The position numbers and the translations under genes are program-made. 64,000 bases of DNA from an uncultured Bacilli bacterium (lineage in GTDB: Bacteria > Bacillota_I > Bacilli_A > RFN20 > CAG-826): the NCBI GenBank assembly GCA_905235515.1, contig CAJOLV010000005.1, positions 6,409 to 70,408 on the forward strand, written 5' to 3'. Numbering within the stretch: position 1 is the stretch's first letter; every line of letters starts with the position of its first letter. Shown here one piece after another: positions 20,962 to 44,514 of this stretch. The notes beneath the pieces were generated by a model. It ran no database searches. It was not told the origin of the DNA and saw only the letters and a list, made by a program, of their open reading frames with translations.

Positions 20962-22716
20962 TTATTTATCAGGGAATTTTTCACGATCTGCGACATAACT
21001 TGTATGTAATAATTCTTCAGCTTTTTCGCTTAATGGATGGCCTAGGAATTCGTCGTATAATCTTTGAATATCCTTGTTGTTATGAGATTGACGAATAACT
21101 TGTCTTTCGTCTTCGCTATAGAGAACAGCAGCTCTCTTTTGGCGATATGTTTCGAGGATGTCATCATCTTCATTTGGCAATAATGTTGGATGGACATATG
21201 GTTGACCACCGCCATTGATACAGCCACCTGGACAGCACATAATTTCAATGAAGACATAAGGTGATTTGCCAGCTTTAACTTCGTCTAATAATGGTTTTGC
21301 ATTTTTCATACCAGAGGCCACTGCGACTTTCACACCGAGTTCTTTAATCTCTGCTTCTTTAACGCCTTGTAAACCACGAACTTCCTCAAAGTTAATCTTA
21401 GCGTATTCTTTACCTGTGAGTTTCCAATAAGCTGTTCTTAAAGCGGCTTCCATAACACCACCAGTAACACCAAAGATGACACCAGCGCCAGAGTATTCAC
21501 CTAATAAGTCTTGGTCATATTCTTCTTCTGGAAGTTTTTGCCAATTGATACCAGCACGTTTAATCATTTTAGCTAATTCACGTGTTGTTAAAACGGCATC
21601 AACATCATTAGGCATTTGTTTTCTAGCGCGTTCATATTTCTTAGCAGTGCATGGCATGATGGAGACATTGAAGATATCCTTTGGATCGATACCATGTTTT
21701 TCTGCGAAGTATGTTTTTGTAATCGCACCTTGCATCATATGTGGGGATTTACATGTAGAAATGTTTGGAATAATTTCTGGATAGAAGTATTCCATGTAGT
21801 TAATCCAACCTGGTGAGCAAGATGTAATTTGTGGTAAGACACCTTTATGTTGAATTCTTTCTAATAATTCAAAGGCTTCTTCCATAATGGTTAAATCAGC
21901 ACCGAAGTTTGTATCAAAGACTCGATAGAATCCTAAACGGTGTAAAGCTGCAACCATCTTACCGGTACCACAGGTACCAATCTTTTCACCGAATTCTTCC
22001 GCGATAGCAGCTCTCACTGCAGGAGCGGTTTGAACGATAACATATTTACCAGCTTTGAATGCTTCATCGACTTTGTCGATTTCGCTATGTTCCATTAATG
22101 CACCTGTTGGACAAACATTAACGCATTGACCACATTGCAAACATGGGGAATTAGCAAAACTTCTGTTTTGAACCGGGGAAACAATTGTTTTAAAACCACG
22201 ATTTTCAAAACCCAAGATGGCAATACCTTGTGCTTCTTTACAGCGTTCAATACAACGCCCACAGAGGATACATTTTGCGGTATTTCTGATAATACCAGGA
22301 GCAACTTCATCTAAAGTCTTTTCGGTCATTTCACCAACGAATTTTTGGTCACGAGCACCGACCATTTCAGCGACGTGTAAGAGTTCACAATGACCATTTT
22401 TTGGACATTGTAAACAGTTCTTTTCGTGGTTGGAGAGGATTAATTCAACAGATGCTCTACGAGCAGCAGTTGCTTTTGGAGAAGAAATGGAGATTTCCAT
22501 CCCTTCATTAACTGGATACACACAGGAAGCGCATAATCCACGCGCACCTTTAATTTCAACTAAGCAAACACGGCAAGATGCTTGTGAACATTTACCATGA
22601 TTAAAAGCGCATAAAGAAGGAATTTCATATCCGCATTTGCGGCAGGCTTCTAAAACGGTTAATGAATTATCAACTTGATATTCATGACCTTCGATTTTGA
22701 TATTAATTAACGCCAT
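20962..22716 (-). CDS. hydA: [FeFe]-hydrogenase catalytic subunit (HydA/HndD-type, M3 architecture with N-terminal 2Fe-2S + 4Fe-4S domains and C-terminal small-subunit-like tail)
   Basis: H-cluster motifs L1 'TSCSPGW' (variant), L2 'MPCTAKKYE', L3 'EIMCCPGGCINGGGQP'; ferredoxin CxxCxxC...CP motifs; N-terminal 'CRVC' 2Fe-2S. Confidence 0.9.
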   Translation of the reverse strand: MALINIKIEGHEYQVDNSLTVLEACRKCGYEIPSLCAFNHGKCSQASCRVCLVEIKGARGLCASCVYPVNEGMEISISSPKATAARRASVELILSNHEKNCLQCPKNGHCELLHVAEMVGARDQKFVGEMTEKTLDEVAPGIIRNTAKCILCGRCIERCKEAQGIAILGFENRGFKTIVSPVQNRSFANSPCLQCGQCVNVCPTGALMEHSEIDKVDEAFKAGKYVIVQTAPAVRAAIAEEFGEKIGTCGTGKMVAALHRLGFYRVFDTNFGADLTIMEEAFELLERIQHKGVLPQITSCSPGWINYMEYFYPEIIPNISTCKSPHMMQGAITKTYFAEKHGIDPKDIFNVSIMPCTAKKYERARKQMPNDVDAVLTTRELAKMIKRAGINWQKLPEEEYDQDLLGEYSGAGVIFGVTGGVMEAALRTAYWKLTGKEYAKINFEEVRGLQGVKEAEIKELGVKVAVASGMKNAKPLLDEVKAGKSPYVFIEIMCCPGGCINGGGQPYVHPTLLPNEDDDILETYRQKRAAVLYSEDERQVIRQSHNNKDIQRLYDEFLGHPLSEKAEELLHTSYVADREKFPDK

Positions 22717-22728
22717 GATTATTTCCTC

Positions 22729-24618
22729 CTATCTCTTAATGATGGCACCGAAGCGGCAACCACTCATACATGCACCACACTTGACACATTTCGCTGGGTC
22801 GATGTGATGGACAAATTTACCAGGTAATTTAGCTGGCTGATCAGTTGTACCAATGGCGTTAACTGGACAGTTACGAGCACATAAGGTACATCCCATACAT
22901 TTTTCTGGAACAATGTAATATTCCATCATGTTTTTACAAACATGAGCAGGGCATTTGTGGTCAACAACGTGTGCCTTGTATTCTTCTGGGAAAGCCTTCA
23001 TTGTTGATAAGATTGGGTTGGTAGCGGTTTGACCTAAAGCACAGAGAGAGTTATTTCTAATAACATCACTTAATTCCTCTAATTCATCGAGGTCTTCAGG
23101 TGTACCTTTGCCATCACAAATCTTGGTTAAGATGTCTAAACATCTCTTGGTGCCAATACGACATGGAGAACATTTACCACAAGATTCATCACAGATGAAT
23201 GTCATGTAGAATTTTGCGACGTCAACCATACAGTTATCTTCGTCCATAACGATTGCACCACCAGAACCCATCATACTTCCAGCAGCAACTAAGCTACCAA
23301 AGTCGATTGGTGTATCTAGGTCTTTTTCGGTTAAGCAACCACCGGATGGGCCACCAGTTTGAATGGCTTTGAATTTCTTACCACCAGGGATGCCACCACC
23401 GACATCATAAATTAATTGTCTTAACGTTGTGCCCATTGGAACTTCAACAAGACCAACATTATTAATCTTACCACCAAGAGCAAACACTTTTGTGCCACGT
23501 GTATCGGCTGTACCGATAGCAGCGAATTTTTCCCAACCTTCTCTTAAGATATATGGAACGCAAGCTAATGTCTCAACGTTGTTGACAACTGATGGGCAGC
23601 CCCATAAACCTTTTACTGCTGGGAACGGAGGACGTGGACGTGGCATACCACGTTTTCCTTCAATACTATTAATTAATGCTGTTTCCTCACCACATACGAA
23701 TGCGCCAGCGCCTAATCTAATATGGCAGCGGAATGAGAAGTCTGTACCTAAGATGTGATCACCTAAGATACCTAATTCTTCTAAGTCTTTAATAGCTTTG
23801 GCTAATCTTTGAACGGCGATTGGATATTCAGCACGAACATAGAAGTAACCATTTTGGGCGCCGATTGCGTAACCAGCAATCATCATGCCTTCAATAACCG
23901 CGCATGGGTTACCTTCAATGATAGATCTGTCCATGAATGCACCTGGGTCACCTTCGTCACCATTACAAATCATATATTTTGGACCATCTGTCTTTGGAAC
24001 AAAGGACCATTTTCTACCGGTTGGGAAGCCTGCACCACCACGACCACGTAAGCCTGATTTTAAAACTTCATCAATGACTTCTTCTCTGGTCATAGATAAG
24101 GCTCTTCTTAAACCTTGGAAAGCACCTAAGCCAATGGCTTCGTTGACATCTTCTGGGTTAATTTCACCATTACCGTGTAAAGCGATATCTCTTCTTTGCA
24201 ATTTGTAGAAGTTAATATCGTGTTGTTTTTGCACTTTTTGTTTTGTTTGTGGATCGACAAATAGTAAGCGTTCGACAATCTCGCCACCTAAAATGTCTTT
24301 TTCCATGATTTCTTCAACATCTTTCACCTTAACTTTTGTGTATAAAGTTTCTTCTGGGAAGATTTTGACGAACGGGCCTTGGGAACAGAAACCAAAGCAA
24401 CCGACGATATTGCAAGTAACTTTTTCTTCTAAGCCTTTTTCTTTAATTAATTCATTGAAACGTTCAATGATACCTTGTGAATCGCTGGCCAAACATCCAG
24501 TACCACCACAGACAACGATTGCTCTATGTCCTGGTTCACAATGAAATTTCTTTTGTAAACATGCGCCGCAATGTTCAATGCGCTCTTGTAATTCTTTTTC
24601 GTTAGTGATCTTTGCCAT
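22729..24618 (-). CDS. hydB: NADH-binding flavoprotein subunit of hydrogenase (NuoF-like HydB/HndC) with N-terminal thioredoxin-like 2Fe-2S and C-terminal 2x[4Fe-4S] domains
   Basis: 'GRGGAGFPTGRKW' NADH site, 'GAGAFVCGEETALINSIEG' FMN site, 'CGKCSPCR' N3 cluster, C-term 'CMGCTLCARNCP...CVKCGACMSGC'. Confidence 0.9.
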   Translation of the reverse strand: MAKITNEKELQERIEHCGACLQKKFHCEPGHRAIVVCGGTGCLASDSQGIIERFNELIKEKGLEEKVTCNIVGCFGFCSQGPFVKIFPEETLYTKVKVKDVEEIMEKDILGGEIVERLLFVDPQTKQKVQKQHDINFYKLQRRDIALHGNGEINPEDVNEAIGLGAFQGLRRALSMTREEVIDEVLKSGLRGRGGAGFPTGRKWSFVPKTDGPKYMICNGDEGDPGAFMDRSIIEGNPCAVIEGMMIAGYAIGAQNGYFYVRAEYPIAVQRLAKAIKDLEELGILGDHILGTDFSFRCHIRLGAGAFVCGEETALINSIEGKRGMPRPRPPFPAVKGLWGCPSVVNNVETLACVPYILREGWEKFAAIGTADTRGTKVFALGGKINNVGLVEVPMGTTLRQLIYDVGGGIPGGKKFKAIQTGGPSGGCLTEKDLDTPIDFGSLVAAGSMMGSGGAIVMDEDNCMVDVAKFYMTFICDESCGKCSPCRIGTKRCLDILTKICDGKGTPEDLDELEELSDVIRNNSLCALGQTATNPILSTMKAFPEEYKAHVVDHKCPAHVCKNMMEYYIVPEKCMGCTLCARNCPVNAIGTTDQPAKLPGKFVHHIDPAKCVKCGACMSGCRFGAIIKR

Positions 24619-24623
24619 AACAA

Positions 24624-25106
24624 TTAAGCCTCCAAAGCGCGATAATCCGCGACAATTTTCTTCACGTCGTCAACTTTAACTTGTGGATAAACCTTACCAT
24701 TAATACTAACGGCTGGTGCACACGCACAAGCACCGATGCAACGGAGAACATCGATTGTAAACAAACCATCAGCAGTTGTCTCACCGGCTCCCACACCGAG
24801 GATTTCTGAGAATTTGTCTAAAACCAAATTACTACCTTTAACGTAACAGGCAGTACCTAAGCAAACGCCAATGACATATTTTCCTTTTGGTGTCATTGAG
24901 AAGAATGAATAGAAAGTGACAACACCGTAAATATCACTGAGTGGCACTCCAGTGAGTTCACTAACTAACTCTTGGACTTCTAAAGGAATGTATCCGTATT
25001 CCTTTTGGATGTCCTCAAGAATCATCATGGTAGATGTTGGTTCATCTTTGTAGCGTTCACAGATTTCTGTAATAAGTTTTACAGCATGAGCTTGCAATTT
25101 AGCCAT
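24624..25106 (-). CDS. hydC: NuoE-like thioredoxin-fold [2Fe-2S] subunit of hydrogenase (HydC/HndA)
   Basis: 'CLGTACYVKGS...CIGACACAPAVSING' 2Fe-2S pattern. Confidence 0.9.
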   Translation of the reverse strand: MAKLQAHAVKLITEICERYKDEPTSTMMILEDIQKEYGYIPLEVQELVSELTGVPLSDIYGVVTFYSFFSMTPKGKYVIGVCLGTACYVKGSNLVLDKFSEILGVGAGETTADGLFTIDVLRCIGACACAPAVSINGKVYPQVKVDDVKKIVADYRALEA

Positions 25107-26320: not shown

Positions 26321-26417
26321 TAATTTTATTAATTATTTATCCTTCAATATATTTATAATTAATCAAATATTCTATTAAATTTAAAACTTTTTATAAAATA
26401 AACATTCCAATTGCCAA

Positions 26418-26446
26418 CTTATTTTTGTGGGCTTTTTTCTTTCTTC
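26418..26446 (+). terminator. Weak candidate terminator downstream of ldhD-like gene (GCCAAC...GTGGGC, 1 mismatch, + TTTTTTCTTTC)
   Basis: Imperfect 6-bp stem and T-run. Confidence 0.3.
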
Positions 26447-26639
26447 TACCCTTCAAACAAATTATCAAGAAAAAAGTGCATTTAGACACTGTCCAAATTT
26501 AATGATTTTTCTACTTTTTTTCTCACGCGATTTTATATAAGATAGAGACACTCGCTTTTATAAAGGGAAATAAAGGGGAGAACACAAAAACGTCGTGTGA
26601 TGTTTTTCTATCACTAAAAAATAAGGGAGTGAGCTTTTT

Positions 26640-29009
26640 ATGCTAAGTATCAAAAAAAGAAACGGTAGTGTCCAAGACTTCAACATTACCAAAATCCAAA
26701 ACGCGATTGAAAAGGCGTTCATCGCAGAACACAAATTCTACAATAAAGATATCATTGAAATGTTAGCGTTACGTGTCGTAGCGGATTTTAATGATAAAGT
26801 TCGTAACAGTTTAATATCAGTCGAAGATATCCAAGACTCAGTGGAAATCGTTTTAGTCCAATCTGGTTTCGTGGATGTTGCTAGATCATACATGATTTAT
26901 CGTAAACAACATCAAAACTTAAGAGAACTTTCTGGTACTGAATTAGATTATAAAAAAGTCGTTGATAACTATTTAGGTGTCAGTGACTGGAGAGTTAAAG
27001 AAAACTCTACAGTTACCTATTCTGTTGGCGGTTTAATCCTTTCCAATTCTGGCGCTGTTACAGCAAACTATTGGTTAAGTGAAGTTTACGATAAAGAAAT
27101 CGGTGATGCCCATAGAAACGCTGATATTCATATCCATGACTTATCCATGTTAACTGGCTACTGTGCTGGTTGGTCATTAAAACAATTAATTCAAGAAGGT
27201 TTAGGCGGTGTCGTTGGTAAGATTACATCTTCTCCAGCTAGCCACTTATCCACTTTATGTAACCAAATGGTTAACTTCTTAGGCATTATGCAAAATGAAT
27301 GGGCCGGCGCTCAAGCATTCTCTTCATTCGATACCTATTTAGCCCCATTTGTTAAAGCTGATAATTTAACATATAAAGAAGTCAAACAATGCATTCAATC
27401 CTTCATCTATGGTGTTAACACTCCATCAAGATGGGGAACTCAAGCTCCATTTACAAATATTACCTTAGACTGGGTTGTTCCAAATGACTTAGCCGAACTC
27501 AACTGTATCGTTGGTGGCAAAGAAATGCCATTCAAATACAAAGATTGTGCGGAAGAAATGGCAATGGTTAACAAAGCCTTTATCGAAATTATGATTGAAG
27601 GTGACGCTAATGGCCGTGGTTTCCAATACCCAATCCCAACATATTCCATCACCAAAACATTCGACTGGTCTGAAACAGAAAATAATAAATTATTATTTGA
27701 AATGACCGCCAAATATGGAACACCTTACTTCTCTAACTACATCAATTCCGATATGGAACCAAGCGATGTTAGAAGTATGTGCTGCCGTTTAAGATTAGAC
27801 TTACGTGAATTAAGAAAGAAATCTGGTGGTTTCTTCGGTTCAGGTGAATCTACTGGTTCTATCGGTGTTGTTACAATCAATATGCCAAGACTTGCTTACT
27901 TAGCAATGGACGAAGCTGATTTCTATGATCGCTTAGATAGAATTATGGACTTATCCGCTCGTTCCTTACACATTAAGAGGGAAACAGTTACTAAATATCT
28001 AGAAGCTGGTTTATATCCATATACAAAACGTTATTTAGGTACATTCAATAACCACTTCTCCACTATCGGTTTAGTCGGTATGAACGAAGCATGCTTAAAT
28101 GCTAAGTGGTTAAGATGTGATTTAACCAATCCTAAAGCCATTGAATTCACCAAAGCCGTTCTCAATCATATGAGAGAAAGACTTTCTGATTATCAAGAAT
28201 TATATGGTGACTTATATAACTTAGAAGCTACCCCAGCAGAATCCACTGCTTATCGTTTAGCAAAACACGATAAGAAATTATATCCAGAAATTATCACTGC
28301 TGGCGAAGCAGGTGGTACGCCATATTACACTAACTCTTCTCACTTACCAGTTGGCTATACAGAAGATGTTTTCAAAGCTCTTGATATTCAAGATCAATTA
28401 CAAACTCTCTATACATCTGGTACTGTTTTCCATACATTCTTAGGTCAAAAACTTCCAACTTGGAAATCTTGTATGAACTTAGTGAGAAAGATTGCGGAAA
28501 ACTACCACATTCCTTACTACACAATGTCTCCAACATACTCTGTTTGTAAAGAACATGGTTATTTAAAAGGCGAACAATTCATTTGCCCACACTGCGGTCA
28601 AAGAACAGAAGTCTATTCCCGTATTACTGGTTACTATAGACCAATTCAAAACTGGAATGATGGCAAGACCGAAGAATATAAGCAAAGATTAGAATACGTT
28701 CCAGCGAACTCTCATTTAACTCATGGTATTGATCGTGATGATGAACACGCAACAGAACAATCTCAACCTAAGGTTGATGAAACATTATTATTTGCCACTA
28801 AAACATGTCCAAACTGTAAGATGGCAAAAATGTTATTAGAAAAAGCTGGTGTCTGCTTCAGAACCATTTATGCAGAAGATGATGCTGATTTAGCTAAACG
28901 TTTCAAAGTCGTTAAAGCTCCAACATTAATCGTTCCAGGAAAAGAAACTTATAGCGTTTATGAAAACGCTTCTAACATCAAAGGTTTCGTAGAAAGTTTA
29001 AAGAACTAA
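26640..29009 (+). CDS. nrdD: Anaerobic ribonucleoside-triphosphate reductase (class III, NrdD) with N-terminal ATP-cone and a fused C-terminal glutaredoxin/NrdH-like redoxin domain
   Basis: ATP-cone 'IKKRNGSVQDFNITKI'; Zn ribbon 'CKEHGYLKGEQFICPHCG'; glycyl-radical motif 'SRITGYYRP'; then ~35-aa linker and 'TKTCPNCKMAK...KAPTLIV' thioredoxin-fold CxxC domain. Confidence 0.9.
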   Translation: MLSIKKRNGSVQDFNITKIQNAIEKAFIAEHKFYNKDIIEMLALRVVADFNDKVRNSLISVEDIQDSVEIVLVQSGFVDVARSYMIYRKQHQNLRELSGTELDYKKVVDNYLGVSDWRVKENSTVTYSVGGLILSNSGAVTANYWLSEVYDKEIGDAHRNADIHIHDLSMLTGYCAGWSLKQLIQEGLGGVVGKITSSPASHLSTLCNQMVNFLGIMQNEWAGAQAFSSFDTYLAPFVKADNLTYKEVKQCIQSFIYGVNTPSRWGTQAPFTNITLDWVVPNDLAELNCIVGGKEMPFKYKDCAEEMAMVNKAFIEIMIEGDANGRGFQYPIPTYSITKTFDWSETENNKLLFEMTAKYGTPYFSNYINSDMEPSDVRSMCCRLRLDLRELRKKSGGFFGSGESTGSIGVVTINMPRLAYLAMDEADFYDRLDRIMDLSARSLHIKRETVTKYLEAGLYPYTKRYLGTFNNHFSTIGLVGMNEACLNAKWLRCDLTNPKAIEFTKAVLNHMRERLSDYQELYGDLYNLEATPAESTAYRLAKHDKKLYPEIITAGEAGGTPYYTNSSHLPVGYTEDVFKALDIQDQLQTLYTSGTVFHTFLGQKLPTWKSCMNLVRKIAENYHIPYYTMSPTYSVCKEHGYLKGEQFICPHCGQRTEVYSRITGYYRPIQNWNDGKTEEYKQRLEYVPANSHLTHGIDRDDEHATEQSQPKVDETLLFATKTCPNCKMAKMLLEKAGVCFRTIYAEDDADLAKRFKVVKAPTLIVPGKETYSVYENASNIKGFVESLKN

Positions 29010-29012
29010 TTT

Positions 29013-29921
29013 ATGTTTGATGTTATTGTTGTCGGTGGCGGTCCTGCAGGAATGGGCGTCGCTCTCAACTTGCTTAGAGCAGGTCGAGACGTCCTCATTT
29101 TGGAATGCAACGCCTTCGGTGGACAAATGGCAACTTCTCCAAGACTAGAAAATATTCCAGGTACCATTTCTATTTCTGGATTAGAATTCTCTGATAAATT
29201 ATTTGAACAAATTACTGAATTAGGTGCGCAGTTTGAATTAGAAACTGTGACTGAAATTCAAAAAAAAGACGGCAGTTTTGTCGTAAAAACTGACTGGAAT
29301 AGCTATGAATGCCATGCGGTTGTCTTAGCTAATGGTTGTTCTCATAGAAAGATGGGATTGCCAAAAGAAGACGAACTAGTCGGACATGGTATCTCCTATT
29401 GCGCAGTTTGTGATGGAGCCTTTTATGTCGGTCATGAAGCTTGCATCATTGGTGACGCCAATACAGCGTTACAATATGCATTAATGCTCGGTAATTATTG
29501 TCCAAAAGTTCATATCTTTGCTTTATTCAATCGTTTATTTGCGGATCAAATCTTAATTGATAGAGTGAAAAACGATGCAAAATATGACGTGACCTATAAT
29601 GTCTCTCTTCAAGAGTTCATTGGTGAAGATGAATTAAAAGGACTAAGATTTAAAAACACTCAAACCGAAGAAGAATTCACAATTAAAACAAATAATGTCT
29701 TCATCGCAATTGGTCAAATCCCACACAACGAACCATTTAAAGATTTAATTGAATTAGATAAAGGATTTGTTGTCACTAATGAATTAATGGAAACTAATGT
29801 TCCAGGCATATTCGCAGTTGGTGACACTCGTAAAAAAAGCGTTCGCCAAGTTATTACCGCATTAGGTGATGCTAGCGTTGCCGCTGTGATGATTGATCGA
29901 TACTTAAGAAATCTTGAATAA
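29013..29921 (+). CDS. Thioredoxin-reductase-like flavoprotein (FAD + CAVC redox-active disulfide) with degenerate NAD(P)H-binding motifs; candidate ferredoxin-dependent (FFTR-like) thioredoxin reductase
   Basis: 'VIVVGGGPAGMG' FAD site, 'YCAVCDGA' active site; second GxGxxA is 'IIGDANTA' and HRRDxxR replaced by 'ALFNRLFAD'. Confidence 0.7.
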   Translation: MFDVIVVGGGPAGMGVALNLLRAGRDVLILECNAFGGQMATSPRLENIPGTISISGLEFSDKLFEQITELGAQFELETVTEIQKKDGSFVVKTDWNSYECHAVVLANGCSHRKMGLPKEDELVGHGISYCAVCDGAFYVGHEACIIGDANTALQYALMLGNYCPKVHIFALFNRLFADQILIDRVKNDAKYDVTYNVSLQEFIGEDELKGLRFKNTQTEEEFTIKTNNVFIAIGQIPHNEPFKDLIELDKGFVVTNELMETNVPGIFAVGDTRKKSVRQVITALGDASVAAVMIDRYLRNLE

Positions 29922-29926
29922 GATAA

Positions 29927-29956
29927 GCCATCCTCAGTGATGGTTTTCTTTTTTTA
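29927..29956 (+). terminator. Bidirectional terminator between trxB-like and nrdG (CCATC-ctcagt-GATGG + T-tract)
   Basis: 5-bp stem followed by TTTTCTTTTTTT. Confidence 0.4.
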
Positions 29957-29970
29957 GTGCATTATATATT

Positions 29971-30657
29971 TTAATATCCTCTTAATTCGATTTTAGAAAT
30001 ATATTTATTTAACACTTTTATAAATTCTTTAGCGGTTTCTTCTTTAACTTCATGAAGACCTTTTTGAATGCAGCCGTCTCTTTCCACAAACTTCTGTAGA
30101 TAAAGCACTTTTGCGCCTTTGATTAAGCTTGCTAATTCTTCCATATCTTCTACTTTATGGAACTCATCCACTAATGTGGTTCTAAATTCATAGTCAACGC
30201 CAGAATTCATAATGAGCTCAATACTCTTTTTGATATTATTCATGTTTACTTGTTTTGTGCCGGTAGTTAAAGCATATTTTTCTTCCGAATTTTTAATATC
30301 CATAGCGATGTAATCTAGAAGATTAGAATCAATTAAATCTTTGACAACATCAGGATTAGTTCCATTAGTGTCTAATTTAACCAAGAATCCTAATTCTTTT
30401 ACTTTTTGGATGTGTTTTTTAAGATTTGGTTCTAATGTTGGTTCCCCACCAGTGAACACCACTGCGTCTAACAATCCTTTTCTAGATTTAAGATAATCTA
30501 ATGACGCATCAAATAAGATTTCATCTTCTGCTTGTAAAACTGTTAAACCATTATGGCAGAACGGGCATCTGAAATTACATGTCTTATAAAATAGGACACA
30601 ACTAATCTTATCTTCATAGTCCAATAAGGACATTTTGTCTAGTCCAACCAAGCTCAT
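29971..30657 (-). CDS. nrdG: Anaerobic ribonucleotide reductase activating protein (radical SAM)
   Basis: 'CNFRCPFCHN' CxxxCxxC cluster motif, 228 aa. Confidence 0.9.
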   Translation of the reverse strand: MSLVGLDKMSLLDYEDKISCVLFYKTCNFRCPFCHNGLTVLQAEDEILFDASLDYLKSRKGLLDAVVFTGGEPTLEPNLKKHIQKVKELGFLVKLDTNGTNPDVVKDLIDSNLLDYIAMDIKNSEEKYALTTGTKQVNMNNIKKSIELIMNSGVDYEFRTTLVDEFHKVEDMEELASLIKGAKVLYLQKFVERDGCIQKGLHEVKEETAKEFIKVLNKYISKIELRGY

Positions 30658-30728: not shown

Positions 30729-31199
30729 ATGAAAGCATCAAATATTTCTTGGGATGAATATTTCATGGGTATTGCCTTACTTTCCTCTTTGAGAAGTAAA
30801 GATCCGAATACCAAAGTTGGAGCTTGTATCGTTGATGATGACAACAAGGTGGTTTCAATTGGCTATAACGGTATGCCTGCAGGTTTGGATGAGGATCAAT
30901 TATCCTGGAACAGAGGCGAAGGTTTAGACAGCAAATATTTATATGTTTGTCACGCTGAATTTAACGCTATCTTAAATACCCGTAACGGCGCATCCCTCCG
31001 TGGCTGTAGATTATATGTCACCTTATTCCCTTGCAATGAATGTGCAAAAGCCGTTATTCAAACAGGCATCAAAGAAGTTGTCTATTTAGATAACAAATAT
31101 CAAGATACCACTGGTGTTCAAGCATCATTAAAGATGTTAAAACTCGCTGGTATCAAAATCAGAAAGTACGAAGAAGACGTACCAGAAATCAATTATTAA
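30729..31199 (+). CDS. dCMP deaminase (ComEB-type cytidine/deoxycytidylate deaminase)
   Basis: Zn motifs 'CHAEFNAI' and 'PCNECAKAV'. Confidence 0.85.
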   Translation: MKASNISWDEYFMGIALLSSLRSKDPNTKVGACIVDDDNKVVSIGYNGMPAGLDEDQLSWNRGEGLDSKYLYVCHAEFNAILNTRNGASLRGCRLYVTLFPCNECAKAVIQTGIKEVVYLDNKYQDTTGVQASLKMLKLAGIKIRKYEEDVPEINY

Positions 31200-31200: not shown

Positions 31201-31992
31201 ATGACTATTAAAGAATACGTAAAAGTCAAAAAAGCAGAGATAAGAGAATATGTTTTATCTATGCCAAGAAAACCAAAACTAGTAATTGTTCAAATCAATG
31301 AAGATGAAGCTAGTTATGCTTATATCCGTGGCAAATTAAAAGATGCTGCTGATTTAGGTATTGAAGCAGAATTAATTAAACTACCTTTAGAAACTTCCCA
31401 AGAAGAATTATTAAAAAAAATTGATGATCTAAATCACGATTCATCAGTTGATGGCTTTATCGTTCAAATGCCTTTGCCAAAACAAATTAATGAGGAGACA
31501 GTTAAATTAGCTATTGCTCCAAATAAAGATGTCGATGGTTTCCATCCGTTAAGCAAGTTAGATCCGTGCACTCCTAGAGGCATTATGAACTATCTAAATT
31601 CTAAAAATATAAAAATTCAAGGGAAAAATGCAGTGGTTATTGGCCGTTCTAACATTGTTGGTAAGCCAATGGCGAAATTATTATTAGCGGCGAACGCTAA
31701 TGTAACAGTGCTTCATTCTAAAACAAGTTTTGAAGATATGAGAAACTATATTGCTAATGCAGATATCATTGTTATTGCGATTGGAAAAGCTGGATTCTTA
31801 GACAAAAAATTCACTTATAAACCAGATGCAGTTCTTGTTGATGTTGGTATTAATCGATTAGAAGATGGCTTACACGGTGACGCAATTGCTAACCTTCCAG
31901 TTGGATTACAAACTCCAGTCCCAGGTGGTGTTGGATTACTCACTAGATTAGCGTTATATGAAAATCTTTTAACAATTGTTAATGGAAAATAG
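31201..31992 (+). CDS. folD: Bifunctional methylenetetrahydrofolate dehydrogenase/cyclohydrolase
   Basis: 'GFIVQMPLP', 'DVDGFHP', 'GRSNIVGKPMA', 'PGGVGLLT'. Confidence 0.9.
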   Translation: MTIKEYVKVKKAEIREYVLSMPRKPKLVIVQINEDEASYAYIRGKLKDAADLGIEAELIKLPLETSQEELLKKIDDLNHDSSVDGFIVQMPLPKQINEETVKLAIAPNKDVDGFHPLSKLDPCTPRGIMNYLNSKNIKIQGKNAVVIGRSNIVGKPMAKLLLAANANVTVLHSKTSFEDMRNYIANADIIVIAIGKAGFLDKKFTYKPDAVLVDVGINRLEDGLHGDAIANLPVGLQTPVPGGVGLLTRLALYENLLTIVNGK

Positions 31993-33994: not shown

Positions 33995-34075
33995 TATTAA
34001 AACCTCCTCGTGTTAAAAATATAATACAAAAAAGGAATAGATTTCTCCATTCCTTAATTGATATTAGTGACTAGA

Positions 34076-34477
34076 TTATTCAACCCAAGTAACAACACTG
34101 ATAGGAGCGTTATCACCTTTACGGTTACCTAATTTTAATCTTCTGGTGTAGCCACCATTACGGGATTTGAATTTAGGACCTAATTCATTGAATAAGACAT
34201 CTAAGGCTTTAACGCCTTGTTCATTTTCAATGTTTCTGACAAATCTAGCAGCTTGTCTTTTCGCATTCATGACATCTTCTTTTTTGGTTAATGTCACTAA
34301 ACGGTCAGCTTCTTTAACAACGTCACGAGCAGTGGCTTCTGTGACTTTGACAGTGCCGTGAAGAATTAAATCTGTCACAACATTACGAAGCATATTTTCA
34401 TATTTGCTCTTTGTGTAAGCGGCCTTAAATCTAACGCCTGTCTTACCATGAACATTTTTTCTACCTTGTGCTGGCAT
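34076..34477 (-). CDS. rplQ: 50S ribosomal protein L17 (with ~17-aa N-terminal extension)
   Basis: 'AYTKSKYENMLRNVVTDLILHGTVKVTEATA' L17 core; GGAGG RBS at annotated start. Confidence 0.9.
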   Translation of the reverse strand: MPAQGRKNVHGKTGVRFKAAYTKSKYENMLRNVVTDLILHGTVKVTEATARDVVKEADRLVTLTKKEDVMNAKRQAARFVRNIENEQGVKALDVLFNELGPKFKSRNGGYTRRLKLGNRKGDNAPISVVTWVE

Positions 34478-34491
34478 ATTTAATCCTCCTA

Positions 34492-35460
34492 TTATTCAAA
34501 GTCTTTAAAGGCTAAGTTATAACTGATAAGTTTTTCTTTAATTTCTTTTAAGGATTTCTTACCAAGGTTCTTGACCTTCATCATATCTTCCTCAGTCTTT
34601 TCTGTTAATTCAAGAACAGTTTGGATACCCGCTCTCTTGAGACAGTTATAAGAACGAACAGAGAGATCGAGTTCTTCGATTGGGAAGTTTTCGTATTTGT
34701 TTTCTTCGACTGGAGCGACATCCTTTTCGATATTAATATCGCGTGTAATATCCGCAACGCCTAAGAATTTTTCAAAGTGTTTAATTAATAAGTTAGCACT
34801 TTCAGCAAGAGCCACTTGTGGGGTGATGGAACCATCAGTCCAAACTTCAACTGTTAATTTATCGAAGTGTGAATCGTGACCAACACGGGTGTTATCGACT
34901 GTGTAGTTAGCTTTTCTCACTGGAGAATAGTTACTATCAGTAGCGATTGTACCTAATTGGAGGTTTGGATGGAGAACTTTATTTTGTTCGCCAGTGACAT
35001 AACCTCTACCATTACGAGCGTGGAGAACCATGTGTAAGCTACCACGATCTGTTAAATGGGCAAGAACTAATTCTGGGTTGACGACTTCTACGCCTGTTGG
35101 GCAAATAATGTCACCAGCGGTAATAACGGCAGGACCTTGAGCTTTGATTTCAAGTCTCTTATTGCCATCATCTTCTTCGTCAATACGGAGAATTAAATCT
35201 TTTAAGTTGAGAATGATGGTTGTGACGTCTTCTTCCACACCTTCTAAAGCGGTGAATTCGTGACGTGCACCTTCAACTTCAACAGCGTAAACGGATGCGC
35301 CTGGTAAGGATGAGAGTAAAACTCTACGTAAAGCATTACCTAAGGTTAATCCGAATCCTCTTTCGAGTGGTTCGATAACGAAGCGACCATAATTTTCATT
35401 ACCATCATAGTCTGCTTGGGTGATTTCAAATCTTTCAAATGGATTAGCAATTTTCATCAT
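34492..35460 (-). CDS. rpoA: DNA-directed RNA polymerase subunit alpha
   Basis: 322 aa, 'ERGFGLTLGNALRRVLLSSLPG'. Confidence 0.95.
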   Translation of the reverse strand: MMKIANPFERFEITQADYDGNENYGRFVIEPLERGFGLTLGNALRRVLLSSLPGASVYAVEVEGARHEFTALEGVEEDVTTIILNLKDLILRIDEEDDGNKRLEIKAQGPAVITAGDIICPTGVEVVNPELVLAHLTDRGSLHMVLHARNGRGYVTGEQNKVLHPNLQLGTIATDSNYSPVRKANYTVDNTRVGHDSHFDKLTVEVWTDGSITPQVALAESANLLIKHFEKFLGVADITRDINIEKDVAPVEENKYENFPIEELDLSVRSYNCLKRAGIQTVLELTEKTEEDMMKVKNLGKKSLKEIKEKLISYNLAFKDFE

Positions 35461-35472
35461 TCTTACCTCCTA

Positions 35473-35862
35473 TTAGCCTCTTGGGCGTTTTGGTGGACGG
35501 CAACCGTTATGTGGGATTGGTGTGCTATCAACGATAGATAACACTTGTAAGCCAGCGACGGCTAAGCTACGGATTGCGCCTTCTCTACCTGGGCCTGGGC
35601 CTTTGACATCGACATCGACTTGACGAATACCTTGTTCATAGGCAGCTTTGGCAGCGGCTTCAGCAGCTTGCATAGCGGCGAATGGTGTACTTTTCTTTGC
35701 GCCTTTAAAGCCCATCGCACCAGCGGAGGACCATGTTAAGGCGTTACCTTGTTCATCACAAATTGTGACGATTGTGTTATTGAAAGTTGAGTGAATGTGG
35801 GCGACGCCTTTCGTAAATGAGCGTTTAATTTTCTTTTTACGAGCATTAGTTTTTTGTGCCAT
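35473..35862 (-). CDS. rpsK: 30S ribosomal protein S11
   Basis: Sequence and operon position. Confidence 0.95.
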
Positions 35863-35883
35863 AACTATTTACTACTCCTTTCA

Positions 35884-36261
35884 TTAACCTTGTGGCGCCA
35901 TCTTCTTATTCGCAATGGTCTTACGTGGACCTTTACGTGTTCTGGCGTTGGTTTTACTTCTTTGACCACGGACTGGTAAACCTCTTCTATGACGTGTGCC
36001 ACGGTAGCAGCCGATTTCGGTTAAACGTTTGATATTTAACGCGACTTCACGTCTGAGATCACCTTCGGTCTTATATTTACCGATTTCATTTCTAATTGCA
36101 CCGAGTTGATCATCGGTTAAATCTTTAACTCTGATTGTGCCGTCGACTTTTGCGCCTTCGCAAATAAGTTCAGCGGTATGTCTTCCGATACCATAAATAT
36201 AGGTAAGGGAAATTTTGACTGGTTTGTCATTAGGAATATCTACACCTACTAAACGTGCCAT
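35884..36261 (-). CDS. rpsM: 30S ribosomal protein S13
   Basis: '[13 protein letters not shown]'. Confidence 0.95.
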
Positions 36262-36276
36262 ATTCTAATATCCTCC

Positions 36277-36390
36277 TTAACCTTGTCTCTGCTTATGCTT
36301 TGGATTTTCACAAATGACCATAACTTTGCCATTTCTCTTAATCACTTTGCATTTTGGGCAGATTGGTTTGACTGAAGGTCTGACTTTCAT
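36277..36390 (-). CDS. rpmJ: 50S ribosomal protein L36 (37 aa; below ORF-track cutoff)
   Basis: Hand translation '[37 protein letters not shown]' with AGGAGG RBS. Confidence 0.9.
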
Positions 36391-36414
36391 AATTTCTTTC
36401 CTCCTAGTTTGATT

Positions 36415-36633
36415 CTACTTGAATCTAAATGTTATGCGGCCCCGTGTTAAATCATAAGGCGAGATTTCTACTGTAACTTTATCACCTGGGAGAATGCGTA
36501 TGTAATTCATACGGATTTTTCCAGAAACGGTGGCCAAGATTACAACGCCGTTCTCTAGCTTAACCTTGAACATGGTGTTCGGTAAGCATTCTGTAACGAC
36601 CGCCTGTACTTCGATCATATCTTGTTTAGACAT
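36415..36633 (-). CDS. infA: Translation initiation factor IF-1 (start MSKQDMIEV; track ORF longer)
   Basis: '[45 protein letters not shown]'. Confidence 0.9.
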
Positions 36634-37399
36634 ATAGTTTCTTTTCCTCTTCTGTGAGAGTAATAATTTCTCTTCCGTTTTCGGTAATGACGATGGTGTT
36701 TTCATAGTGACAAGTTAGTTTCCCATCTCTACTTTTAACAGTCCATCCGTCACCGAGGATACGTGTATCTTTTCTTCCTTCAAGAACCATTGGCTCAATG
36801 GCTAATGTCATTCCTTTTTGAAGAAGTGGTCCACTACCTTCTTTACCAAAATTAGGAATTGATGGATCTTCATGCATGCTTTTACCAATACCGTGACCGG
36901 TAAAGTCTCTAGCGACATTATATCCGTTACTCTCGACTGTTTTTTGGATTGCGCTTTGAATATCGCCTAAGTGATTGCCTGGTTTGGCTTGAGCAATTCC
37001 GTTAAAGAATGCTTGTTTAGTTACTTCCATCAATCTTTGAGCGCGTTCACTAATGATGCCTATCGCGAATGTACGTGTCGCATCAGCGCAATAGCCTTGA
37101 TAATTCGCCACGACATCAAGGGAGACGATATCTCCTTCTCTTAAAATAATCTTATGAGAAGGAATACCATGAATTAATGTGTCATTAACACTAACGCAGG
37201 TCATCGCTGGATAATCATAATATCCTTTGCACGGACCAGTGCAACCCATTGAGGTAATCACTTCTTCCGCTTTAGCGTTGATCTGATAAGTAGAAACACC
37301 TGGTTTCATCAATTTGCCACATTCTTCAAAGACTTTAGCAACGACTTCGCCGGCCTTCTTCATTAATTCGATTTCCCTTGTTGACTTGACGATAATCAT
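36626..37399 (-). CDS. map: Methionine aminopeptidase type I
   Basis: 257 aa, metal ligands pattern '[12 protein letters not shown]...HGIG'. Confidence 0.9.
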
Positions 37400-37401
37400 A
37401 A

Positions 37402-38052
37402 TTATTTGTTTAAAAATTTAGAAACTTGATCGAAGAGTTCTTCTTTACCCACTAAGGAATTAAAGGATTCTAGCAAGCCTTCTTTGGCGTAGAAATCTAA
37501 TAATGGCTTAGTGTCTTGAACATAGTGTTCTAAGCGGACTTTTAACGCTTCTTCATTATCATCCGCTCTTTGATAGAGTGGTCCACCACAGATATCACAG
37601 ACACCTTCAACCTTTGGTTTTAAGGTGATGACATGATATGGGGCGCCACAAGTTTTGCAAACTCTTCTGCCACTGATGCGGCGAATGAGTTCAGCATTGT
37701 CACAATCTAAGTTCACAACAACTTCAATTGGACGATTTATTTCTTTTGATAATTCTCTTAACGCTTCCGCTTGTGGAAGGGTTCTTGGAAAACCATCAAG
37801 TAAGAAACCTTTCGCGCAATCACCTTGACTAAGGCGTTCTTTGACTAAGCCAATTGTGACTTCATCTGGAACTAAATCACCTTTATCAATATATGATTTT
37901 GCTAATGTGCCAAGAGGTGTACCTGCTTTAATGGCGTCTCTAAACATATCACCTGTTGAGATATGAACGAGATTTAAAGCGGACATTAATTGCTTGGCAA
38001 GAGTGCCTTTTCCCGCTCCGGGAGGACCCATTAAGATAATGTTTTTCTTCAC
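37402..38052 (-). CDS. adk: Adenylate kinase (zinc-lid type)
   Basis: 'GPPGAGKGT' P-loop; 'CKTCGAPYH...CDICGG' lid. Confidence 0.95.
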   Translation of the reverse strand: MKKNIILMGPPGAGKGTLAKQLMSALNLVHISTGDMFRDAIKAGTPLGTLAKSYIDKGDLVPDEVTIGLVKERLSQGDCAKGFLLDGFPRTLPQAEALRELSKEINRPIEVVVNLDCDNAELIRRISGRRVCKTCGAPYHVITLKPKVEGVCDICGGPLYQRADDNEEALKVRLEHYVQDTKPLLDFYAKEGLLESFNSLVGKEELFDQVSKFLNK

Positions 38053-39404
38053 TAGTCTCTTCCTCCTGCTGCGACGACTTCGTCGAATGATTTACCAGCT
38101 AATAAGCCATCGATTTGGGTGTTAAGCTCGAGAGCGACACCAACAACGATGATTAAGCCAGTTCCACCGAGTGCTAAACTTGGATAATCTTTGAAGACTG
38201 TCAAGGTGAGGACACTTGGTAATGCGGCAATGATAGCTAAGGCCATCGCACCGATGAATGTCACGCGGTTAAGAACTTTACGAACATATCTTTCGGTTTC
38301 AATACCTGGTCTCACACCAGGAATATAAGAGCCGTTTTTCTGGAAGTTTTCCGCTAATTGTTCAGGATTGATTTGTAAATTAGCATAGAAGAAGGTGAAC
38401 ATAATGGTTAAGGCGAGATAGATAATCAAGCCCCAAGGCATACTCCAACTTCCCATGTTGGTCATCTTACTACTAGAGAAGACATTGAGCCATTCAGCGT
38501 TAGTGTCACTGCCTAAGAAACCGACAATGATACTTGGAGCAGTCATAATTGAGCTAGCAAAGATGACTGGGATAACGCCTGCGGAGTTAATCTTAATTGG
38601 TAAGAAACTCGCTTTGGCCATTGATTGAGTTTGTCCTCCACCCTTTCCTGAATGTTGTACTGGAATCTTTCTCTTTGATAATTCAACGAATGTAACAAAG
38701 GAGATGATGAGTAAGAAGGAGAGGATGTAAAGAAGGAATGAGAAGACGCCTTTAATAAGTTGGGCATCTCCTGGGTTAGCACCGATAATCCATCTTTGGA
38801 AAGCAGTGCTAATTTGATTTGGTAAGGAGCAGACGATACCCGCAAAAATAATCATGGAAATACCGTTACCGATACCTTTAACAGAGATTTGGTCACCTAA
38901 CCACATCACTGTCATTGAGCCAGCAAGCATGACCACGACGACATAGACATATGTAAGCCATGGAGTGCTACCAGCGGAGAAGCTGACTAAGTCACTTGTC
39001 TCCATTGTTTTAATGATGCCATAAGCTTGGACAGCACCTAACATAAGAGTTAAGTAACGAGTCGCTAATTCCATCTTTTTACGACCATATTGGCCTTGAC
39101 GTTTTAATTCAGATAAGGCTGGTAAGACATCGGTCGCTAATAATTGAACGATAATCTGCGCAGTAATATATGGGGAAACGCCTAATGCGAAGATGGAGAA
39201 TGTTTGTAATGTTCCACCGCCTAAGATGTTCATTAATGCCAATGCGTTATTACTTTCTAAGTAAGTAGATAAGTTTTCACTTTCTAATGTCGCACCTGGA
39301 ACAGTAATCTGACATCCAATACGGAAGATGAATAGGATCAAGATCGTAAACATAATACGATTCATGATCTCTTTGTTTTTAAGAATTGATCCTAATTTCT
39401 TCAT
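38052..39404 (-). CDS. secY: Protein translocase subunit SecY
   Basis: 450 aa, 10 TM, operon position. Confidence 0.95.
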   Translation of the reverse strand: MKKLGSILKNKEIMNRIMFTILILFIFRIGCQITVPGATLESENLSTYLESNNALALMNILGGGTLQTFSIFALGVSPYITAQIIVQLLATDVLPALSELKRQGQYGRKKMELATRYLTLMLGAVQAYGIIKTMETSDLVSFSAGSTPWLTYVYVVVVMLAGSMTVMWLGDQISVKGIGNGISMIIFAGIVCSLPNQISTAFQRWIIGANPGDAQLIKGVFSFLLYILSFLLIISFVTFVELSKRKIPVQHSGKGGGQTQSMAKASFLPIKINSAGVIPVIFASSIMTAPSIIVGFLGSDTNAEWLNVFSSSKMTNMGSWSMPWGLIIYLALTIMFTFFYANLQINPEQLAENFQKNGSYIPGVRPGIETERYVRKVLNRVTFIGAMALAIIAALPSVLTLTVFKDYPSLALGGTGLIIVVGVALELNTQIDGLLAGKSFDEVVAAGGRD

Positions 39405-39406
39405 AA

Positions 39407-39847
39407 TTAGATCACCTCAATTTTGCCACCAGCTTCATTAATAGCTTGTTCGGCTGATTTGGAGAATTTATTAGCTTGGACAGTTAAGGCTTTGCTTAAT
39501 TTGCCATTACCTAATACTTTAATTCCATCATATTCCTTACGGACTAAACCGGATTCAATTAATAAAGTTGGAGTGACCAATGTACCGGCTTCAAATCTTT
39601 CAAGCGCGGAAACATTAATGACTGCATAATTGACATGATTAACATTCTTAAAACCACGTTTTGGTAATGCTCTGAATAATGGTAATTGACCACCTTCGAA
39701 GCCTAAACGGACACCACCGCCTGATCTAGCATTTTGACCTTTGTGGCCTTTGCCAGCGGTTTTGCCGTTACCACTACCTTCACCACGGCCTTTACGCCAA
39801 TTGGCTTGACGGCTGCCAGCGGTTGGTTGAAGTTCATGCAATTTCAT
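39407..39847 (-). CDS. rplO: 50S ribosomal protein L15
   Basis: Gly/Lys-rich N-term, operon position. Confidence 0.95.
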
Positions 39848-39887
39848 AAATGCACCTCCTTAATTCAATTTTTGCTATAAGCAATAA

Positions 39888-40511
39888 TTATTCTTTACTA
39901 CGAAGAGTTTTAATCTCTTTATAGTTCTTAAGGCTTTCTAAACCTTGGTTGACAGCGCGGACAATGTTGATTGGGGCGCGGCTACCATAAACTTTGGAGC
40001 AAACGTTTTGCACGCCTGCTAATTCTAAGACCGCACGAACTGGGCCACCGGCGATAATTCCGGTACCTTCAGGTGCTGGTTTTAATAAGACGGAGCAAGC
40101 TCCATATTTACCGACGACTTCGTGAGAAATGGTATTACCTTTAACAAGATGAATCTTGAAGAGGTTTTTCTTCGCGGCTTCGGTAGCTTTTTTAATAGCA
40201 TCTGGGACTTCAGCGGCTTTGCCGAGAGCAAATCCGTATCTACCTTTATGATCACCAATGACCATTAAGGCGGTGAATTTCATACGACGTCCACCTTTAA
40301 CGGTTTTACTAACTCTGTTAATAAAGACGACTCTTTCCTCAAATTCTTTTGGTTCATCACGACGGACATCTTTACGATCTCTTCTTGGGCCACCTTTACG
40401 GTCACCACGTGGACGACGATCTTGTGGACGTCTTTCGCCTTCTTTAGGAGCTTCGACTGGAGCTGGTTGTTCCGCAACTGGTGCTTCTTGAACTAATTTT
40501 TCTTCTTCCAT
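39888..40511 (-). CDS. rpsE: 30S ribosomal protein S5 with ~45-aa charged low-complexity N-terminal extension
   Basis: Core '[29 protein letters not shown]'; N-term '[49 protein letters not shown]'. Confidence 0.9.
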
Positions 40512-40525
40512 TTGTTACTCCTCCA

Positions 40526-40882
40526 TTAGAATTCTAAGCCAGCTTCACGAGCGGCTTCTGCTAATGCTTTGATTCGACCGTGATAAACATAACCACTTCT
40601 ATCAAAGACGATTTTCTTTAAACCTTTGGCGAGTGCTTTTTCAGCGATGTCTTTGCCAACTTTACCAGCAGCTTCAATATTGGAGCCATTTTCAAGTTTT
40701 AAGGACATAGAGGAGGAAGACACTAAAGTGCAACCTTTCACATCGTCAATAAGTTGTGCTTCGATGTTTTTGTTTGAACGGTAGACACATAATCTTGGTG
40801 CTTCCGCGGTGCCAGAGATTTTGGCTCTAACACGGGCATGTCTACGAACACGTGAGACATTTTTGGATTCTTTTTTGACCAT
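40526..40882 (-). CDS. rplR: 50S ribosomal protein L18
   Basis: operon position, 118 aa. Confidence 0.95.
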
Positions 40883-40901
40883 AATTATCTATCTCCTTTC
40901 A

Positions 40902-41459: not shown

Positions 41460-41470
41460 AAACTATCCTC

Positions 41471-41863: not shown

Positions 41864-41884
41864 AAATAATCGATATCCTCCTTA

Positions 41885-42070: not shown

Positions 42071-42084
42071 TGTGAGCTCCTTTC

Positions 42085-42798: not shown

Positions 42799-42811
42799 GT
42801 TGATTACCTCC

Positions 42812-43117: not shown

Positions 43118-43132
43118 AGTTATCTATCCTCC

Positions 43133-43878: not shown

Positions 43879-43892
43879 GACAACTGACCTCC

Positions 43893-44093: not shown

Positions 44094-44098
44094 ATCGA

Positions 44099-44512: not shown

Positions 44513-44514
44513 GA

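Follow-up and report, generated by a model that had tools for sequence, protein, structure and literature searches.

Where does a class III ribonucleotide reductase (RNR) obtain its electrons when its own polypeptide ends in a redoxin? The question is raised by a three-gene locus at positions 26640-30657 of the window, by which we mean the whole stretch of 64 kb (64,000 nucleotides) of an uncultured Bacilli bacterium that was analysed. The locus comprises nrdD-grx, which encodes the oxygen-sensitive RNR with a glutaredoxin-fold (Grx-fold) domain at its C terminus, a gene for a flavoprotein resembling thioredoxin reductase (TrxB-like) and nrdG, which encodes the activase. A redoxin fold with an intact CxxC motif, a double-cysteine active site with its glutamate and a conserved, co-inherited gene module together point to a self-contained thiol relay as the best reading. 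Judged from the sequences, we find it likely that nrdD-grx, trxB-like and nrdG form a thiol-based electron supply dedicated to this RNR, an arrangement that probably provides electrons for deoxynucleotide (dNTP) synthesis without formate. Residue numbers below are those of the NrdD and TrxB-like proteins of the window.

An earlier note on this DNA had placed three open reading frames (ORFs) here, and their positions are exactly as it gave them: the nrdD stop codon TAA is followed by a 3-nt gap (TTT) and the ATG of the TrxB-like gene, which starts 4 nt past nrdD and is convergent with nrdG. The ORF list, Pfam and NCBIfam show that the first gene encodes a class III RNR ending in a redoxin domain. 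Its NCBIfam scores are 1124 bits for the ribonucleoside-triphosphate reductase equivalog NF006126 (cutoff 548) and 513 bits for TIGR02487 (cutoff 326), and the features of class III membership are all present: the glycyl-radical motif, the finger-loop cysteine, the betaA cysteine, the zinc site and an adjoining NrdG. The class III architecture that had been read from the ATP-cone and the SRITGYY motif is borne out by Pfam and the sequence; the zinc ribbon, given then as CxxC...CxxC, is CxxH...CxxC (C636/H639...C649/C652). Past the glycyl-radical motif the chain runs through a 28-aa disordered linker into a 75-aa Grx-fold domain with a CPNC motif (Table 1), where Pfam recognises Glutaredoxin (PF00462) at residues 717-767 with 28.3 bits (gathering cutoff 22.9).

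The last 139 residues of NrdD were modelled with AlphaFold2. The linker (about residues 682-712) has a pLDDT of 50-60 and the tail that follows it forms a beta-alpha-beta-alpha-beta-beta-alpha arrangement at a pLDDT of 90-95, which is the topology of a glutaredoxin. A Foldseek search with this model returned 37 PDB matches at E<=1e-3, all of them members of the thioredoxin/glutaredoxin superfamily. The tail had been predicted to be a thioredoxin-fold domain, with a failure to model as such named as the outcome that would speak against it, and both analyses agree with the prediction.

The more specific label of the tail, glutaredoxin/NrdH-like, holds for the Pfam match, the Grx fold and the intact CxxC, and fails at the level of family models, by which the tail is neither a glutathione (GSH)-type glutaredoxin nor NrdH. 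Scores against the NCBIfam equivalogs for Grx3 (TIGR02181), NF007923, YruB (TIGR02196) and mycoredoxin are 22-25 bits, far under cutoffs of 88-129. No NrdH-family model of NCBIfam matches the tail at E<=0.01, and neither the CPYC nor the CVQC motif is found in it. The closest solved structures to the redoxin profile are the C-terminal unit of the "glutaredoxin-like" protein disulfide oxidoreductases (PDO) of Pyrococcus (1j08, 1a8l; E~1e-10), Aquifex PDO, the Grx-fold thioredoxin of M. jannaschii (MjTrx; 1fo5) and NrdH (1r7h). Grx-fold redoxins of the PDO, MjTrx and NrdH types are reduced by thioredoxin reductases, not by glutathione, which fits the presence of a reductase gene adjoining nrdD-grx.

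To see how widespread the fusion is, we ran a redoxin-domain profile against GTDB, taking a single genome for each species. Confirmed loci were obtained in at least 596 of these representative genomes, and gene neighbourhoods were read in the best 80 loci. The redoxin is the C-terminal part of the NrdD ORF in all 80, with CPNC in at least 74 and the AP[TS] motif in every one. A protein search with residues 651-789 gave 989 clusters (90 % identity), and of the 120 listed almost every one combines NRDD with a Glutaredoxin or Thioredoxin Pfam domain, and the 120 closest full-length homologues are without exception fusions of ~789 aa. Since the ORF is uninterrupted at 80 independent genome loci and in these 120 proteins, we rejected an assembly or frameshift artefact. 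Among the matches listed the carriers are mostly metagenome-assembled genomes from gut and rumen labelled Bacilli, Erysipelotrichaceae, Clostridia, Oscillospiraceae and Lachnospiraceae; one cultured species among them is [Eubacterium] hominis.

Within the fused clade, identity to the window protein is ~79 % in the NrdD core, ~51 % in the redoxin and ~19 % in the linker, and the length of the linker (the stretch at 687-709 in the window) varies from 14 to 34 aa. This pattern is as expected for two folded domains on a flexible tether. In a search of 1.84 billion representatives the fused clade forms a single cluster at 50 % identity (P0241). Its unfused relatives at ~50 % identity (P0260, P0264, P0269 and P0294) stop 23-34 residues past the glycyl motif; one of them, P0264 (L084-L086), lies among many small ORFs without Pfam matches in a phage-like context. 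Twelve contigs of IMG/VR that are labelled viral (L090-L101, some of 100-200 kb) also encode the NrdD-Grx fusion, with an adjoining TrxB-like gene in none of the 12, and in three others (L102-L104) a 75-aa homologue of the redoxin domain is encoded on its own. One 950-aa NrdD-redoxin protein with a "Thioredoxin" domain (P0141) has an internal duplication of ~155 residues that spans the finger loop and is probably an assembly artefact. Many NrdD representatives in the same search have lengths of 900-1900 aa and align with the query over 2-4 discontinuous segments, which is consistent with intein insertions.

The active site indicates what kind of reductant the enzyme may accept. Aligned with T. 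maritima NrdD (4coi, 139.6 bits), C175 corresponds to C125, the S-M-C381-C382-R stretch to the SCCR motif and E529 to E495. Among 70 full-length fused proteins, which we used as the conservation set for catalytic motifs, GYC175AG, RSMCCRL and the glutamate of NLEATPA are invariant. A third cysteine together with this glutamate is given in PMC4493059 as the mark of the thioredoxin-type NrdD2, and the window NrdD has both (MCC382R and E529). The formate-type pattern, for contrast, is MGCR without the glutamate, as in P. copri. In the N. bacilliformis NrdD a disulfide between the finger-loop and betaA cysteines is reduced by thioredoxin (PMC9669993). The same survey calls the subclades that lack the upstream methionine "thioredoxin-only" and finds that 83 % of double-cysteine class III enzymes retain it (Burnim et al. 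2022, PMC9669993). Met380 is present in 70 of the 70 fused proteins. The comparison of active-site patterns that the earlier note had suggested for telling formate from thioredoxin enzymes thus comes out between the two: the double cysteine and glutamate are not those of a formate-only enzyme, the methionine is not that of a thioredoxin-only one, and by sequence the window NrdD belongs to the ambiguous MCCR+Glu majority of double-cysteine enzymes.

Other redoxin tails are found on distant NrdDs of this MCCR+Glu type (45-54 % identity), with CPKC or CPRC in P0289, P0297 and P0389 and CPRC in P0369, and with weak matches to Thioredoxin_2/3 or Glutaredoxin. At the locus L083 of this group the fused gene is followed by nrdG, and a reductase gene is lacking. 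These cases may represent independent fusion events, and the different tails suggest that redoxin capture in this group was repeated, or is old.

We next asked whether the neighbouring genes are conserved. The TrxB-like gene lies directly 3' of nrdD-grx on the same strand in 70 of the 80 loci and within 1-3 kb in 4 more; a survey of this kind, for fusions and for a co-occurring TrxB-like gene, had been put forward as a check in the earlier note, and both parts turned out in favour of the module. In [Eubacterium] hominis, one of these 4, the neighbouring reductase is of a different, 392-aa type and lies on the opposite strand. Across loci nrdG lies either directly upstream or, as in the window, downstream in convergent orientation. 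All-against-all clustering of ORFs in the 80 loci found no conserved genes beyond NrdD, TrxB-like and NrdG apart from spurious overlapping ORFs. Across loci, the identity between two NrdD cores is correlated with that between the corresponding reductases (Mantel r=0.60, reached by 0 of 999 permutations; r=0.64-0.87 within reductase classes), indicating that the two genes are inherited together.

From these observations we infer the following direction of electron flow and pairing of cysteines. NrdG would put a glycyl radical on G664, and a thiyl radical on C381 or C382 would start nucleotide reduction. The reducing pair would consist of C175 in betaA and whichever finger-loop cysteine does not carry the thiyl radical; E529 would donate the proton, and turnover would leave an active-site disulfide as in the thioredoxin-dependent enzyme of N. 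bacilliformis. The C723-P-N-C726 domain, held on its tether of ~28 residues past the glycyl-radical domain, would re-reduce this disulfide through dithiol exchange, within its own chain or across the NrdD dimer. The tethered redoxin would in turn be re-reduced by the co-transcribed TrxB-like flavoprotein with its FAD and C130-A-V-C133. Electrons would thus pass from a donor to FAD/CAVC, to the tethered CPNC, to the C175/finger-loop disulfide and to the nucleotide.

Independent support for such a relay comes from an unfused MCCR+Glu enzyme, P0294 (L088/L089, in an archaeal context with Rpb5 and Rpb2 neighbours), which is encoded in an nrdD-nrdG-thioredoxin (PF00085) operon, and from the functional Grx fused to NrdB (PMC6187632). 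The distant MCCR NrdDs with other redoxin tails also count in its favour. Several points weigh on the other side. The fused enzymes retain Met380, which sets them apart from the thioredoxin-only subclades; the corresponding methionine of E. coli NrdD is involved in formate-dependent chemistry, MCCR enzymes are considered usable in principle with either reductant (Burnim et al. 2022, PMC9669993), and formate use therefore remains compatible with the conserved residues. No reductase lies within 6 kb in 5 of the 80 loci (one further contig ends too early to tell), and together with the 12 viral contigs this means that the reductase is dispensable as a neighbour. The active-site disulfide that a folded redoxin would have to reach in a class III RNR is also buried. 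A self-contained relay had been proposed in the earlier note, and what carries the proposal now is the fold with its CxxC, the double cysteine with Glu, the module in 70 of 80 loci and the correlated identities; it is qualified by the retained methionine, a donor argued by analogy and a loss of NADPH motifs confined to one class of reductase.

The reductase of the window is a TrxB-like flavoprotein that retains the FAD motif GGGPAG and, in its pyridine-nucleotide domain, CAVC; its TIGR01292 score of 292.9 bits is under the cutoff of 343.45. The two NADPH motifs GxGxxA and HRRxxxR are absent, with GDANTA and ALFNRLF in their places, and in the alignment with 7aaw the stretch V-H-R-R-D-T-L-R-A is replaced by F-A-L-F-N-R-L-F-A such that the three arginines for the NADPH phosphate become Leu, Phe and Phe. 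The absence of both motifs is the criterion used for non-NADPH TrxBs (PMC10880999), and the window protein conforms to it.

This degeneration is not a property of all module reductases. We sorted 71 of them by motif into three classes, with 3 left outside (2 truncated genes and 1 variant motif). Class A, the window type, has 39 members with GD[AG]N[TS]A and xLFDxFFxD, nrdG mostly convergent downstream and mostly Bacilli-type labels. Classes B (18 members, GGGNxA and QNLPYLTGE) and C (11 members, GGGxxA and the canonical HRRDxFRxE) have nrdG upstream and Clostridia-type labels. The description of the TrxB-like protein as NADPH-motif-less is thus right for the window and lineage-specific, as class C keeps HRRD and class B has QNLPYLT. 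In the 39 class A sequences the columns of the replacement motif have a conservation of 0.69-0.77 compared to 0.65 for the whole protein, which points to a new constrained function and not to decay.

Against PDB structures the window protein scores 220.7 bits with the NADPH-dependent thioredoxin reductase 7aaw, 120.9 with DTR and 107.7 with the clostridial FFTR 6gna. Classes A, B and C all score far higher with ordinary thioredoxin reductases (220-255 bits) than with FFTR (108-126) or cyanobacterial DTR (121-139), and membership in the clostridial FFTR clade was rejected on these similarities. This distance, together with canonical members in the NrdD-associated clade, makes the loss of motifs look independent. 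The sequences are most simply explained if the module first acquired a canonical reductase, whose pyridine-nucleotide site then changed on two occasions.

Because class A has lost the NAD(P)H-binding residues, its flavin is probably reduced by another donor, which would most plausibly be reduced ferredoxin or flavodoxin; in the sister lineages reductases of the NAD(P)H type would serve the same module. The ferredoxin or flavodoxin donor is modelled on FFTR (PMC10880999) and rests on analogy, since the reductase is nearer to NADPH thioredoxin reductase and by bit scores falls outside the FFTR clade. ORF clustering found no ferredoxin or flavodoxin gene conserved in the module among the 80 loci, which also speaks against such a donor, and elsewhere in the window there is no second TrxB, no thioredoxin and no small ferredoxin. 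It is conceivable, and we propose it only tentatively, that class A is an independently evolved non-pyridine-nucleotide thioredoxin reductase for a single client, the tethered redoxin, and that in a large group of uncultured Firmicutes of gut and rumen it wires dNTP synthesis to the low-potential ferredoxin/flavodoxin pool and not to NADPH or formate.

Alternatively the relay may hold and the class A reductase may be an ordinary thioredoxin reductase with a diverged motif, taking NADH or NADPH through a non-canonical site, which we regard as possible though doubtful. Its nearest structure is a bona fide NADPH enzyme, its module sisters B and C retain GGGxxA and class C also HRRD, no dedicated ferredoxin gene lies nearby, and in part of class A the motif reads GDGNTA, which formally falls within GxGxxA and counts against a donor other than NAD(P)H. 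The best PDB match of class B (for example L078 6238-7149) is 7jyp, which we take to be a Thermosipho (Thermotogae) thioredoxin reductase, and QNLPYLT is common to both, suggesting a recognisable subfamily that is not NADPH-specific. A preference for NADH is reported for a T. maritima reductase in work cited in PMC5627308. Set against this are the loss of all three phosphate-binding arginines, the lack of the acidic residue that typically ends the second beta strand in NADH enzymes, an Asp inside the glycine-rich loop and the agreement with the published non-NADPH criterion (PMC10880999).

A different view is that formate is the catalytic reductant and that redoxin and reductase serve maintenance or activation, keeping zinc-site and active-site cysteines reduced after oxidation for NrdG. 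Thioredoxin is said to keep E. coli NrdD activatable through cysteine reduction, in work that Padovani and colleagues reportedly published in 2001. The tail is placed directly past the zinc-site/glycyl-radical domain, the carriers, anaerobes of gut and rumen, may be exposed to oxygen from time to time, and the methionine is invariant in enzymes of a type described as potentially formate-competent (PMC9669993). But the second finger-loop cysteine and Glu529 are just as invariant and are absent from formate-type MGCR enzymes, a co-inherited operon reductase is a large cost for occasional repair, and a thioredoxin gene accompanies nrdDG in unfused relatives. We consider this explanation improbable. 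That the tail is a general-purpose cellular redoxin, fused by chance and acting mainly on other proteins, is very improbable. In favour of this view are the generic fold and the stand-alone homologues encoded on viral contigs; but all 80 best genome matches are fused to NrdD, and both the tether and the inheritance together with NrdD speak for a dedicated function.

Table 1 Features of the nrdD-grx locus, in window coordinates
Feature	Position	Strand	Evidence
nrdD-grx fusion gene, 789 aa	26640..29009	+	ORF, Pfam, NCBIfam; architecture in 80/80 loci and 120/120 closest proteins
ATP-cone, residues 3-92	26646..26915	+	PF03477, 73.5 bits
NRDD catalytic barrel and glycyl-radical domain, residues 121-686	27000..28697	+	PF13597, 630.7 bits (cutoff 26.2), whole model covered
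betaA cysteine C175 (T. maritima C125)	27162..27164	+	4coi alignment; GYCAG in 70/70
Finger loop M380-C381-C382-R383, double-cysteine MCCR type	27777..27788	+	Alignment; motif classes per PMC9669993
Active-site Glu529 (T. maritima E495)	28224..28226	+	4coi alignment; E of NLEATPA in 70/70
Zinc site C636-x2-H639...C649-x2-C652	28545..28595	+	Read from sequence
Glycyl-radical motif SRITG664YY, residues 660-666	28617..28637	+	Sequence
Flexible linker, residues 687-714	28698..28781	+	pLDDT 50-60
Redoxin domain, residues 715-789; C723-P-N-C726, cis-Pro A760-P-T	28782..29006	+	PF00462, AlphaFold2, Foldseek
Class A TrxB-like flavoprotein, 302 aa, with FAD motif and CAVC retained but NAD(P)H motifs degenerate	29013..29921	+	TIGR01292, PDB alignments, motif survey
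Redox disulfide C130-A-V-C133	29400..29411	+	Sequence
GDANTA replacing the GGGDSA dinucleotide-binding motif	29451..29468	+	7aaw alignment
FALFNRLFA replacing (V)HRRDxxRA	29517..29543	+	7aaw alignment; xLFDxFFxD across class A
Terminator-like hairpin between convergent trxB-like and nrdG, both strands	29925..29946		Sequence
nrdG activase, 228 aa, radical SAM	29971..30657	-	TIGR02495, 208.4 bits (cutoff 131)

The wider surroundings of the module were also examined. Matches to NrdR boxes number 13 in the window where 16 are expected by chance, with 0 in the upstream region 26321-26639, and no riboswitch was found upstream of nrdD, the sole Rfam match in the window being a tRNA. On the minus strand, 1.5 kb upstream of nrdD, lies a cluster for a HydABC-type [FeFe]-hydrogenase (20962-25106), of the ferredoxin/NADH-linked kind, with genes for NuoE-like (24624..25106), NuoF-like (22729..24618) and HydA-like (20962..22716) proteins; it is not conserved at the loci of other genomes. 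Past nrdG, on the plus strand, are genes for dCMP deaminase (30729..31199) and FolD (31201..31992), and the RNR module with these two genes makes up a deoxynucleotide/thymidylate-related neighbourhood. Further along, positions 34000-48000 have a GC content of 0.40-0.43 and a strongly negative AT skew; the minus-strand genes for ribosomal protein L17 and RpoA begin at ~34.1 kb, and the region is therefore probably the ribosomal-protein/rpoA operon and not foreign DNA.

The combination, in a widespread clade, of a redoxin fusion and a co-inherited reductase is strong genomic evidence that MCCR+Glu enzymes are driven by thiols in vivo. The fusion is not surprising in principle; its value is that it offers a handle on how most double-cysteine class III RNRs are reduced, and the three-protein module makes the question of their reductant directly testable. 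The series of reductases, from HRRD through QNLPYLT to the motif-less type, could show how thioredoxin reductases change or lose their dependence on pyridine nucleotides. Should class A indeed use a donor other than NAD(P)H, the tethered redoxin would give the first tractable view of a protein reductant reaching the buried site of a glycyl-radical RNR. The carriers are abundant and mostly uncultured Firmicutes of gut and rumen in which the module is likely to be the main route to DNA precursors, and the current annotation, "ribonucleoside triphosphate reductase", conceals the fusion.

Class III RNRs that depend on thioredoxin are already known, as are dedicated reductant systems encoded in the same operon (M. 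barkeri NrdD3) and Grx fusions to RNR subunits. The fusion itself had, according to the earlier note, not been seen described as a defined system. No characterised case was found in the literature searched; one listing was, in Table S1 of Rozman Grinberg et al. 2018 (PMC6187632), where a single RefSeq entry from Lachnospiraceae bacterium TWA4 appears as Grx:NrdD of subclass NrdDd without context or characterisation. This is the only published description that we found, an earlier mention in Wei et al. 2014/2015 being possible, and a redoxin extension in class III goes unmentioned in the survey of RNR insertions and extensions from 2022. As far as the literature was searched, the spread of the fusion, its strict link with MCCR+Glu, the nrdD-grx/trxB-like/nrdG module and the series of reductase variants appear to be undescribed.

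Among known systems, FFTR resembles the class A reductase in its low-Mr thioredoxin reductase fold with FAD, a CxxC and neither GxGxxA nor HRRxxxR; the window protein differs in having no C-terminal extension and in its greater similarity to an NADPH thioredoxin reductase. In the NrdH/NrdEF/TrxR system of class Ib a Grx-fold redoxin likewise serves an RNR specifically and takes its electrons from thioredoxin reductase, but NrdH is a separate protein for a class I enzyme and its CVQC and WSGFRP motifs are absent from the tail described here. For the NrdD3 of M. barkeri, Wei and colleagues reportedly described in 2015 an operon-encoded NrdH-like redoxin and a ferredoxin:disulfide reductase. That system likewise couples a class III RNR to a redoxin and a reductase of its own that are encoded alongside it, and it can draw on ferredoxin, not NADPH; it is said to differ in lacking the glutamate, in its separate redoxin and in an Fe-S reductase of the FTR type in place of a flavoprotein of the thioredoxin reductase family. 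A redoxin fused to an RNR subunit as its reductant is found in the Grx::ATP-cone::NrdB protein of Facklamia ignava (PMC6187632), but there the enzyme is of class I, the fusion is N-terminal on the radical-generating subunit, and the redoxin is a glutathione-dependent GrxC type with no dedicated reductase.

The thioredoxin-dependent NrdD2 enzymes of N. bacilliformis and T. maritima, with thioredoxin, thioredoxin reductase and NADPH, have the same double-cysteine loop, betaA cysteine and glutamate, and their active-site disulfide is re-reduced by a thioredoxin-fold protein that is itself reduced by a flavoprotein of the thioredoxin reductase type (Wei et al. 2014, as summarised in PMC4493059 and PMC9669993). 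In the enzymes described here, by contrast, the redoxin is fused to the C terminus, the reductase is encoded in the operon and in the lineage of the window is without NADPH motifs, the finger loop reads MCCR and not SCCR, and the catalytic core is only distantly related to that of T. maritima NrdD.

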